Positions 59,001-59,975 of a stretch of DNA of 64,000 nucleotides are shown piece by piece. The notes beneath the pieces are model-generated. The model was given only the letters and a program-made list of their open reading frames with translations. It was not told the origin of the DNA and did not search any database. The position numbers and the translations under genes were made by a program. Every line of letters begins with the position of its first letter. Within the stretch, counting starts at the first letter, position 1. Source of the DNA: a virus (lineage: Duplodnaviria > Heunggongvirae > Uroviricota > Caudoviricetes). The stretch is from IMG/VR virus record IMGVR_UViG_2563366974_000010; one strand, 5' to 3'.

Positions 59001-59045
59001 CACTTATTTTCCCTGGCTCGCTTTTGCGGGCTTTTTTTTAAATGT

Positions 59046-59258
59046 CTCACAATTCAGGCGGTTGACTGTTGTCTGGTTTGCGGGGAGTTTGTTAAAAGAA
59101 ACTGGCATGGTGAATCCCCCTGTGCGGAGGGGCAATCAGCGAGTAGGTATATGGGATAATCGCGGATTCAGGTGCTGGTACTGAATTCACCGGGAGGCAC
59201 CCGGCACCATGCAATGGCACATAGCGCCACTCTCCAGCCCCTCTCCGGAGGGGCTTTT
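59046..59258 (+). repeat. Structured repeat unit 1 (promoter-like TTGACT, nested hairpins closed by CATGGTG/CACCATG, terminator)
   Basis: CATGGTG 59106-59112 pairs with CACCATG 59205-59211; internal hairpins; terminator GCCCCTC-tccg-GAGGGGC-TTTT 59237-59258. Confidence 0.5.
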
Positions 59259-59513
59259 CTGTGCCGGATACATCACAGTTTCTGGAACCTTAGGTACTAC
59301 AGTATCAGTCAGGGTGCTATATTTTCAGATGTGATGAAAGCCTGTCAGCAGGCAGGGCGTATCGGAAATGACCCAGTAGAGAAAACGTTGACTCAGATAC
59401 CGGTGCTGAGTTACCGGGAAACCGGCATCACATGACCGCTATCCTTCCAGGCCCATCCGCTCCGGTGGGCCTTTTTACTGCAGAAAACAGGTTCCCCGTT
59501 AAATGCTATGTTG

Positions 59514-59744
59514 CTCACAATTCAGTAAGTTGACAGTTGCCTGTCAGACTGGGCATTTGTTAAAAAAATTTCGCATGGTGAATCCCCCTGAGCGGAGGGG
59601 CGACTGGTGACGGTATAATCTCTGATTATCAAAACGAGAATGACGCGGGTTTAGTGGCACCGGGCTGAACTCACCGGGAGGCACCCGGCACCATGTGCAT
59701 GATGATACAGATACGCGGCTTTAGCCCCTCTCCGGAGGGGTTTT
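59514..59744 (+). repeat. Structured repeat unit 2 (diverged copy of unit 1)
   Basis: Shares CTCACAATTCAG, TTGAC, CATGGTGAATCCCCCTG.GCGGAGGGG, CCGGGAGGCACCCGGCACCATG and CCCCTCTCCGGAGGGG-TTTT blocks with unit 1. Confidence 0.5.
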
Positions 59745-59975
59745 CTTGTGGGCAAAAAAAGCCCGCGCTGGGAGACGCGGGCGGCAAGGAATAAACAATA
59801 AAACGTGAAGTAATATTTCAGCTGGCGAATAATACCCCATAGTAATCACTCTGCGCAACTGCGCGGTCTTTTTCGAATTGCGGGCTGTCGTCTCTCTTCT
59901 GCCATTGTCCTGTAACTTCCGGACTTCAGCCCGCTCCTTATTTTACTCACAATATTATCCCGGCCGGGAGGATTC

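Follow-up and report, generated by a model that had tools for sequence, protein, structure and literature searches.

We analyzed a 975-base interval in a 64,000-nucleotide stretch of DNA from a virus of the class Caudoviricetes (IMG/VR record IMGVR_UViG_2563366974_000010). We refer to this whole stretch as the window and give all positions in its coordinates. The interval lies between a cluster of tRNA genes and a gene for a sialate esterase. It contains two related structured units on the plus strand, a third and more diverged copy between them, and an oppositely oriented terminator after the second unit. The gene order is an antiterminator gene (56258-57079), a DNA methyltransferase gene (57652-58701), three tRNA genes (58751-59000), the region of interest, an open reading frame (ORF) for a 653-aa protein of the sialate-esterase (nanS-p) type (59976-61937), and then genes for holin and lysozyme. 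We consider it very likely that the locus is an array of three paralogous Hfq-binding small RNA (sRNA) genes of the STnc100 family, together with a fourth, unrelated sRNA gene that converges on them from the minus strand. The array is in the "moron" slot of a lambdoid prophage, here the interval between the late promoter and tRNA genes and the esterase and lysis genes. This setting, between the Q/late promoter region and the lysis genes, is the one typical of STnc100-type genes.

Both units on the plus strand match Rfam family RF02076 (STnc100), a gammaproteobacterial sRNA first found among Salmonella sRNA candidates. Unit 1 matches at 59076-59266 with 136.3 bits (E = 3.9e-31) and unit 2 at 59544-59753 with 161 bits (E = 1.8e-37). 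Each match covers positions 1-206 of the 206-position model, far above the curated gathering threshold of 47 bits. Because both units match the model end to end at these E-values, a chance resemblance is excluded. The helices, terminator and prophage context of the family are also those of units 1 and 2, with no essential difference. The initial annotation of this region, made from the sequence alone, had called for such an Rfam search and had left it unknown whether the elements are sRNAs, cis-regulatory leaders or remnants. That description is out of date, as the family is catalogued and partly characterized.

The structural motifs listed in the initial annotation were all present where it had placed them. 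In its long form, unit 1 (EcOnc05 type) extends from a conserved CTCACAAT to the U-run after its terminator (59046-59262). Its structured core (59105-59212) is bounded by a closing stem, P1, formed by GCAUGGUG (59105-59112) and CACCAUGC (59205-59212), which encloses helices P2 (59117-59121 with 59128-59132), P4 (GGAUUCAG at 59164-59171 with CUGAAUUC at 59181-59188) and P5 (CCGGG at 59190-59194 with CCCGG at 59200-59204). As previously described, the closing pairing joins GCATGGTG (59105-59112) to CACCATG (59205-59211), with 92 nt between. The intrinsic terminator (59236-59262) is AGCCCCUC-UCCG-GAGGGGCU followed by UUUCUGU. The long form of unit 2 (EcOnc27-like) occupies 59514-59749, with P1 at 59573-59580/59689-59696 (the equivalent closing pairing, with 59689-59695, leaves 108 nt between), P4 at 59647-59654/59665-59672, P5 at 59674-59688 and the terminator at 59723-59742. 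The motif CCCCCTG.GCGGAGGGG is at 59116-59132 in unit 1 and 59584-59600 in unit 2, CCGGGAGGCACCCGG is at 59190-59204 and 59674-59688, and CCCCTCTCCGGAGGGG followed by a T-run is at 59238-59253 and 59725-59740. Over 238 aligned columns the units are 70.6% identical, their best blocks reach 80% across 88 nt and 97% across 31 nt, and their starts are 468 nt apart. The two units had been described as tandem copies. They are indeed related, but they are not adjacent, since the 251 nt between them hold a third, diverged copy. The last part of the interval given in the initial annotation (59754-59790) belongs instead to a terminator on the opposite strand.

The third copy, which we call the middle copy (59329-59478, plus strand), is structurally intact. 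Its P1 is formed by AUGUGAUG (59329-59336) and CAUCACAU (59426-59433), P2 by CCUGUC and GGCAGG, P4 by ACUCAG and CUGAGU, and P5 by CCGG-GAAA-CCGG within 59414-59425. The terminator is at 59449-59472 and is followed by five U residues. The RF02076 model aligned all of the helices at 59305-59478 but scored only 30.1 bits (E between 4e-5 and 6e-4). This is below the gathering threshold, and the copy is therefore overlooked at the curated cut-off. Its minimum free energy (MFE) fold has the same architecture as the units (z = -2.32). Five nucleotides upstream of P1 is the end of an extended -10-like box, TGcTATATT (59315-59323). When the middle copies of the window, phage PhiR5_2 and Escherichia albertii were aligned, the mean column identity was 93% overall. 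The box itself was invariant, the body from the box onward was almost invariant, and the flank upstream of the box was much more diverged. The differences among the three copies in P2 keep the pairing. The middle copy is present, as two alleles and unannotated, in 673 of 5426 complete E. coli genomes (~12%). We read it as a putative third functional paralog.

The argument for RNA structure is based mainly on covariation among homologs. Homologs were collected by pattern scans of viral contigs and a few Enterobacterales genomes, reduced to 45 representatives with less than 90% identity to each other, and aligned with MAFFT after three false positives had been removed from a first alignment. The scan pattern (CATGGTGAATCC-N65-95-GGGAGGC) worked on viral contigs. 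On 596 Gb of genome contigs it was too loose and gave mostly chance matches, with few usable Enterobacterales loci. The structure scored was the Rfam-type set of P1, P2, P4, P5 and the terminator, 34 pairs in all. We found that 94.7% of the pair cells were standard pairs and that both sides had changed in 22 of the 34 pairs. None of 500 shuffles reached the observed values, and sliding the 3' partners by 1-3 columns reduced pairing to 35-52%. Compensatory changes were present at five of the eight pairs of P1 (for example AUAUGGCG/CGCCAUAU and GCGUGGUG/CACCACGC) and at all eight pairs of P4, and pairs in the terminator also covaried. There was no covariation in P5. Single-sequence MFE folds of unit 1, unit 2 and the middle copy all recovered the family architecture, a closing stem around P2, P4 and P5 and then an intrinsic terminator. 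The covariation check proposed in the initial annotation thus came out in favor of structured RNA. One additional helix that we considered, between leader and linker (P0; GGGGAGU with ACUCUCC in unit 1), was rejected: across the representatives the cognate duplex had an energy of -7.0 kcal/mol, compared to -6.5 for non-cognate and -6.8 for shuffled pairs.

We also considered whether the region could be a decaying coding remnant or a set of small-protein genes, either an ORF with the conserved closing-stem ATG as its start codon or a minus-strand ORF that RefSeq marks as a pseudogene. Several annotations and motifs point in that direction. The NCBI prokaryotic pipeline (PGAP/RefSeq) annotates a partial minus-strand "hypothetical protein" across unit 1, a 132-aa ORF is annotated antisense to PasD1, a related sRNA discussed below, and both units contain GGAGG-N11-ATG. 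In addition, ribosome profiling of strain EDL933 gave ribosome coverage values above 1 for four of eleven STnc100 copies (PMC5331693). Scans of the local ORFs with Pfam and NCBIfam gave no family above noise. In some homologs no frame stays free of stops for more than 37 codons. Loop lengths differ by non-multiples of three in 21 of the 45 representatives, and linker indels are likewise not multiples of three. The ORF from the closing-stem ATG varies from 1 to 49 codons, gives unrelated peptides, runs through the terminator in different frames, and is missing in four of the 45 representatives, in which the stem has changed by compensation. Substitutions track base pairing and not codons. We therefore found no conserved frame, no known family and no codon-like pattern of substitutions or indels, and a coding origin is hardly credible. 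The Rfam matches, the covariation, the lack of a conserved ORF, and published experiments on identical or orthologous loci (Hfq crosslinking, Northern blots) all agree with the original proposal of structured small RNA genes, and we reject the decaying coding remnant without covariation that had been set against it.

The experimental evidence comes from homologous loci, many of them in the prophages of E. coli O157 strain Sakai. Tree et al. found Hfq crosslinked to "dyads" of convergent sRNAs in the moron slot, which in Sakai is between the late promoter and the lysis genes, in at least eight lambdoid prophages (PMC4104026). Sakai prophage Sp4 is identical to unit 1 from the tRNA genes through the terminator, and then joins directly to the sequence that follows unit 2. 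The crosslinking peak of EcOnc05 (plus strand, ~222 nt by Northern blot; PMC4104026) falls on the Sp4 counterpart of unit 1, and the EcOnc05 locus is identical in sequence to unit 1. The peaks and the probe for EcOnc08 and EcOnc21 (minus strand, ~271 nt; PMC4104026) map to the adjoining segment. These placements hold if coordinates at this site are unshifted between two versions of the Sakai record, as judged from the fit of the minus-strand peak to its terminator. Sp4 (locus L247) is equivalent to the window without 59263-59742, and the junction is in the shared terminator AGCCCCTCTCCGGAGGGG. This suggests that copies are gained or lost by recombination between terminators.

Unit 2 is the counterpart of an sRNA next to Shiga-toxin genes, as judged by sequence comparison. 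In Sakai prophage Sp5 the order is tRNA genes, stx2A, stx2B, an STnc100 match (207.7 bits), the convergent sRNA AsxR (88 bits) and the esterase gene. The Sp5 sRNA is EcOnc27 (~235/247 nt), the 247-nt form of which is destabilized without Hfq (PMC4104026), and it is called sRNA103 in EDL933. The EcOnc27 peak obtained by crosslinking and analysis of cDNA (CRAC) covers P5 to the U-run. The leader and 5' core of unit 2 are 84.5% identical over 181 nt to the Sp5 locus downstream of stx2B. Unit 2 has the leader, scaffold and position of EcOnc27 but differs from it in the variable loop and the linker (core 71% and linker 7% identical). The arrays also differ: Sp4 has one copy, Sp5 has stx2AB and one copy, and the window has two units and a third paralog in a row. 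It had been proposed that the elements occupy the position of the Shiga-toxin genes in related phages. This is half correct. Only unit 1 and the middle copy fill the stx slot. The sRNA coexists with stx, as in Sp5; in Stx phages the toxin genes are upstream of this sRNA and do not take its place.

Several other reports concern members of this family. In EDL933, eleven STnc100 copies are transcribed and one was confirmed by Northern blot (PMC5331693). Overexpression of sRNA103 raises fimZ and espA transcripts (PMC7873438, PMC12711010). Primers for "STnc_100" used in quantitative PCR on vesicles of Shiga-toxin-producing strains (PMC12370729) match unit 1 exactly. Variants in the stx2-adjacent sRNA (EcOnc27) are among the features that predict severe disease (PMC12711010). 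Those that predict haemolytic uraemic syndrome are at +90 and +103 after stx2B (PMC12711010). By our count, which is approximate, they are in or next to the segment TTTGTTAAAAAAATTTCG (Sp5, locus L006, ~1637-1651). In Sp5 this segment comprises the -10-like box and the spacer immediately before the closing stem.

EcOnc05 and EcOnc27 each form a dyad with a convergent sRNA (PMC4104026), and the window contains a predicted convergent sRNA gene of the EcOnc08/21 type (59754-59947, minus strand). Its terminator, GCCCGCGUCUCCCAGCGCGGGC, runs from 59782 to 59761 and is followed by seven U residues. The 5' end is uncertain. It would be at ~59947, giving an RNA of ~194 nt, if transcription starts from a promoter-like site on the minus strand (ATGCCA-17-GATAAT, 59982 to 59954), or at ~60025 if the RNA is 271 nt as in Sakai. 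With either start the RNA would be antisense to the 5' leader of nanS-p, and only the start at ~60025 would also overlap the start codon at 59976. The window aligns with Sakai Sp4 over the whole of 59743-59995 with few differences, and the probe of Tree et al. is identical to Sp4 and differs from the window at 5 of 35 positions. A minus-strand GCCCGCG..CGCGGGC terminator beside an STnc100-type gene, with homology to Sp4, points to the EcOnc08/21/42 group. The RNA is also homologous to an sRNA candidate from enteropathogenic E. coli (EPEC), E2348C_1409.E2348C_1408.IGR, found by RIL-seq (ligation of interacting RNAs followed by sequencing). The convergent partner of unit 2 is thus of the EcOnc08/21 type, whereas the partner of EcOnc27 in Sp5 is AsxR. 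We found no Rfam match to AgvB or AsxR (RF02702/RF02703; convergent sRNAs of 51-60 nt with the 3' region GUAUCUCAUGC..UUGCCCGAACCC) at E-values up to 1-5 in 57500-61000 or 59740-60060, while the Sp5 control locus gave AsxR at 88 bits, and we rejected this identity. There was a weak match to the OmrA-B family at 59842-59754 on the minus strand (25.2 bits compared to a threshold of 40; E of 0.008 in a 321-nt search). The convergent RNA and the conserved 5' seed of OmrA/B have GGUAUU.AUU in common, which may be chance combined with a generic terminator.

A second group of relatives are PasD1 and PasD2 of EPEC strain E2348/69. These are Hfq-dependent sRNAs with Northern blot evidence, RIL-seq targets and a UGUGAG seed (PMC8550237), and a 2026 preprint proposes a common ancestor for them and the STnc100 family. 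PasD (EcOnc13 in Sakai) is found in the same place, upstream of a sialate esterase or holin gene, with PasD2 before the esterase gene and PasD1 directly before the holin gene. It has the same start of the scaffold (GCAUGGUGAAUCC...) and the same closing-stem arrangement as the units in the window. PasD differs in that it has neither the P5 hairpin nor the CCCCUC terminator; the RNA extends to another terminator and has the UGUGAG seed. Against RF02076, PasD scores 38-41 bits (PasD2, 41), below 47. The units in the window are not PasD genes, for they end in the CCCCUC/GAGGGG terminator and do not have the UGUGAG seed in the 3' linker followed by the GGCUGCGCA..UGCGCAGCC terminator. No match to the PasD seed, CCTTGTGAGTTCTGGCTGCGCATG, was found with up to three mismatches anywhere in the window.

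The initial annotation described the TTGAC(T/A) hexamers of the two units (TTGACT at 59062-59067 in unit 1, TTGACA at 59530-59535 in unit 2) as promoter-like and noted a perfect TATAAT in unit 2. The hexamers are 25 nt from the -10-like box. At the normal spacing there is only GAGTTT or GCATTT. Of 79 distinct upstream sequences, only about half contain TTGAC, and a consensus scan found no sigma-70 promoter on the plus strand of the region. We rejected the hexamers as -35 elements on these grounds, and they are probably inside the long transcript, within a 5' hairpin. The TATAAT (59614-59619) is in the variable loop of unit 2 between P2 and P4, is shared only with near-identical copies (locus L208), and is absent from Sp5 and other homologs; we regard it as incidental.

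A candidate promoter element is a -10-like box that ends 5 to 7 nt before P1 in every copy, including PasD2 (TAAAAA). In unit 1 this is the extended box TGtTAAAAG (59090-59098), which ends 6 nt before P1 and is nearly invariant in the 45 homologs, and in unit 2 it is TGtTAAAAA (TGTTAAAAA, 59558-59566). Judged by its position, the box would serve as a promoter for a short isoform starting at P1. In PasD2, the TAAAAA box ends 7 nt before the 5' end determined by RNA-seq, which is the first base of P1, and there is a TTGACT 18 nt upstream of the box. The Northern sizes of EcOnc05 and EcOnc27 (~222-247 nt) would put the major 5' end ~55-60 nt upstream of the scaffold, before the hexamers and near CTCACAAT. 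The conserved CTCACAATTCAG motif at this place is itself preceded in diverse homologs by an A/T-rich -10-like box. Both a long isoform (from near CTCACAAT) and a short one (from P1) are thus plausible. The 5' boundary of RF02076, 29 nt upstream of the closing stem, fits neither experimental 5' end.

Three observations concern the leaders. CTCACAAT is found only three times in the window, at 59046 and 59514 (the heads of units 1 and 2) and at 59946 (the 5' leader of the esterase gene), each time after a -10-like A/T box. CUCACA is the motif common to the targets of the PasD seed UGUGAG, and PasD-type sRNAs encoded elsewhere in the genome might pair with CTCACAAT leaders. The end of the tRNA terminator with its T-run, TTTGCGGGCTTTTTTTTAAA (59023-59042), and the leader just before P1 of unit 1, TTTGCGGGGAGTTTGTTAAA (59077-59096), share 80% identity. 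The conserved TTTGTTAAAA box may have arisen from what was once the tail of a terminator.

The tRNA cluster (58751-59000, plus strand; ileZ/argN/argO type) forms the 5' boundary of the locus and has its own terminator (59015-59032). ARAGORN called the tRNA at 58751-58826 tRNA-Met (CAT); the identical gene is tRNA-Ile (ileZ type) in RefSeq, the usual reading for the phage tRNA cluster. The 975 bases from the tRNA genes to the esterase gene match part of the chromosome of E. coli ATCC 11775 with 100% identity, and 353 of the 5426 complete E. coli genomes have the arrangement at 80% coverage or more. We found no further copies of the family in the window outside this region. Other Rfam matches above threshold in the window were sok antitoxin RNA, DicF, isrJ and a further tRNA, at 54056-54230 (plus), 47230-47281 (minus), 11262-11334 (plus) and 11695-11766 (plus). 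The window thus holds several other known prophage or island RNAs.

A terminator scan of the region gave 10 terminator-like sites compared to 1.3 expected. There is an intrinsic terminator at the end of each unit, convergent terminators face each other at 59723-59782, and the array is in the Q-dependent late operon just after the tRNA genes. These features would fit elements that act in cis on the late transcript. As modules for termination, insulation or processing, they would keep transcription that comes from the tRNA genes or pR' out of the esterase and lysis genes until antitermination by Q, with small RNAs as by-products. On induction, as is established for lambda, Q-modified polymerase would read through all of these terminators. 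A bare hairpin is enough for termination, yet a 100-nt scaffold of several helices upstream of it is kept by compensatory changes. Moreover, homologs accumulate as discrete Hfq-bound RNAs with many RIL-seq partners, and the same scaffold is found before different genes (the esterase gene, the holin gene directly in the case of PasD1, and AsxR). We judge a primary role in cis to be unlikely.

Comparison of the homologs indicates that the copies are modular. The linker, which joins P1 to the terminator, varies more than any other module, with a mean identity of 31% compared to 63% for the core. There were 35 pairs of representatives with cores at least 95% identical and linkers at most 50% identical, and 14 pairs with the reverse. 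These mismatches between core and linker imply that modules have been exchanged between copies, and they fit a scaffold that stays constant while the specificity region is exchangeable. The family recurs in arrays of two to four copies, and a spacing of 467-468 nt recurs in many loci. One viral contig (locus L130; IMG/VR UViG_2861053794_000003, 2257-3381, minus strand) has four very diverged copies in a single array with spacings of 232-402 nt, and one of these copies has three compensatory changes in the closing stem.

OmrA/OmrB and PrrF1/PrrF2 are likewise adjacent paralogous genes for Hfq-dependent sRNAs, with their own terminators and with part of the sequence shared and part different. 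In those pairs, which are chromosomal, the seed is common to both members and the body diverges. In the array in the window, the body (the scaffold) is shared, the presumed seed region varies from copy to copy, and the copies are mosaics with pieces that phages exchange. The sub-threshold third paralog, the recurring arrays of two to four copies and the modular shuffling are mildly new, and none of them is far from the known biology of sibling sRNAs. A more specific proposal is that the locus is an array of three in which compensatory change preserves every helix of the middle gene, whose promoter-like box is the best among the three, and that the family evolves by shuffling a constant scaffold with interchangeable leader and linker (seed) modules. 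We put this proposal forward tentatively, as a reasonable possibility that falls somewhat short of being probable.

We propose the following model for the function of the array. Each forward RNA has a conserved scaffold, an 8-bp closing stem around three hairpins, which is followed by a short and highly variable single-stranded linker and then by an intrinsic terminator with a U-tail. By analogy to the relatives, the RNAs would be made in the lysogen from their own promoters, Hfq would hold them at the 3' hairpin and U-tail, and they would pair in trans with host and prophage mRNAs. The variable linker, which is the site of the seed in PasD, would set target specificity, and the scaffold would provide stability. 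Recombination between phages would shuffle scaffold, linker and leader independently, giving copies with different specificities. Assignment to the Hfq-dependent, trans-acting class is by homology, as discrete Hfq-bound RNAs are known for EcOnc05 and EcOnc27 (CRAC peaks and Northern blots) and for PasD (RIL-seq), and unit 1 is identical to the EcOnc05 locus.

Several points weigh against this model. The transcript evidence comes from homologous loci in other strains and outside the tandem arrangement. Direct targets have yet to be validated for any STnc100-type RNA, and the effects on fimZ and espA may be indirect. Placement of the seed in the linker is an extrapolation from PasD, which scores only 38-41 bits with the family model. 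The 5' ends disagree, in that the long forms seen on Northern blots begin ~55 nt upstream of the scaffold and PasD begins at the scaffold. The energy z-scores of unit 1 (-1.8) and unit 2 (-1.4) indicate unremarkable stability; because these scores are not decisive, covariation carries the argument for structure. RNAalifold, run on the MAFFT alignment, preferred to close the structure in another way, by pairing GGUG with the first CACC, and did not recover P2, P5 or the terminator. We prefer the Rfam closing stem because five of its eight pairs show compensatory changes; the predicted GGUG/CACC pairing is a possible second conformation. Finally, the invariant P5 and loop sequences, which do not covary, may point to contact with a protein or another ligand rather than simple scaffolding.

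This last point could be taken further, to a scaffold that mainly binds a ligand or protein, for example as a decoy or sponge of a non-Hfq factor from the host or a phage, and is not mainly a base-pairing regulator. Across the 45 homologs, UGGUGAAUCC, GGGAGGC and the P5 hairpin show little or no variation while other helices vary freely, and multicopy arrays (up to four per contig, and 11 copies in EDL933) would suit titration. The invariance is inflated, as the search pattern contains these motifs and so partly builds in the constancy of UGGUGAAUCC and GGGAGGC. PasD does not have P5 and yet is an active Hfq-dependent sRNA, and no such binding partner is known. We consider a decoy function very improbable and favor RNAs that act by base-pairing with the help of Hfq.

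The two units belong to a catalogued family and are found where it usually occurs; the main inference of the initial annotation was right, and its promoter details and the "unknown" status were not. The units should be annotated as STnc100-family sRNA genes, EcOnc05-like and EcOnc27-like. The family adjoins Shiga-toxin genes, yet it is without a validated direct target. The window shows these sRNA genes in a toxin-free prophage of the commensal or extraintestinal pathogenic E. coli type, as a three-copy array with different linkers. This natural arrangement is convenient for studying the role of the conserved scaffold and for learning whether the linker sets the choice of target. If the proposed shuffling of scaffold and modules is correct, it would be a cassette system by which lambdoid phages re-target host regulation.

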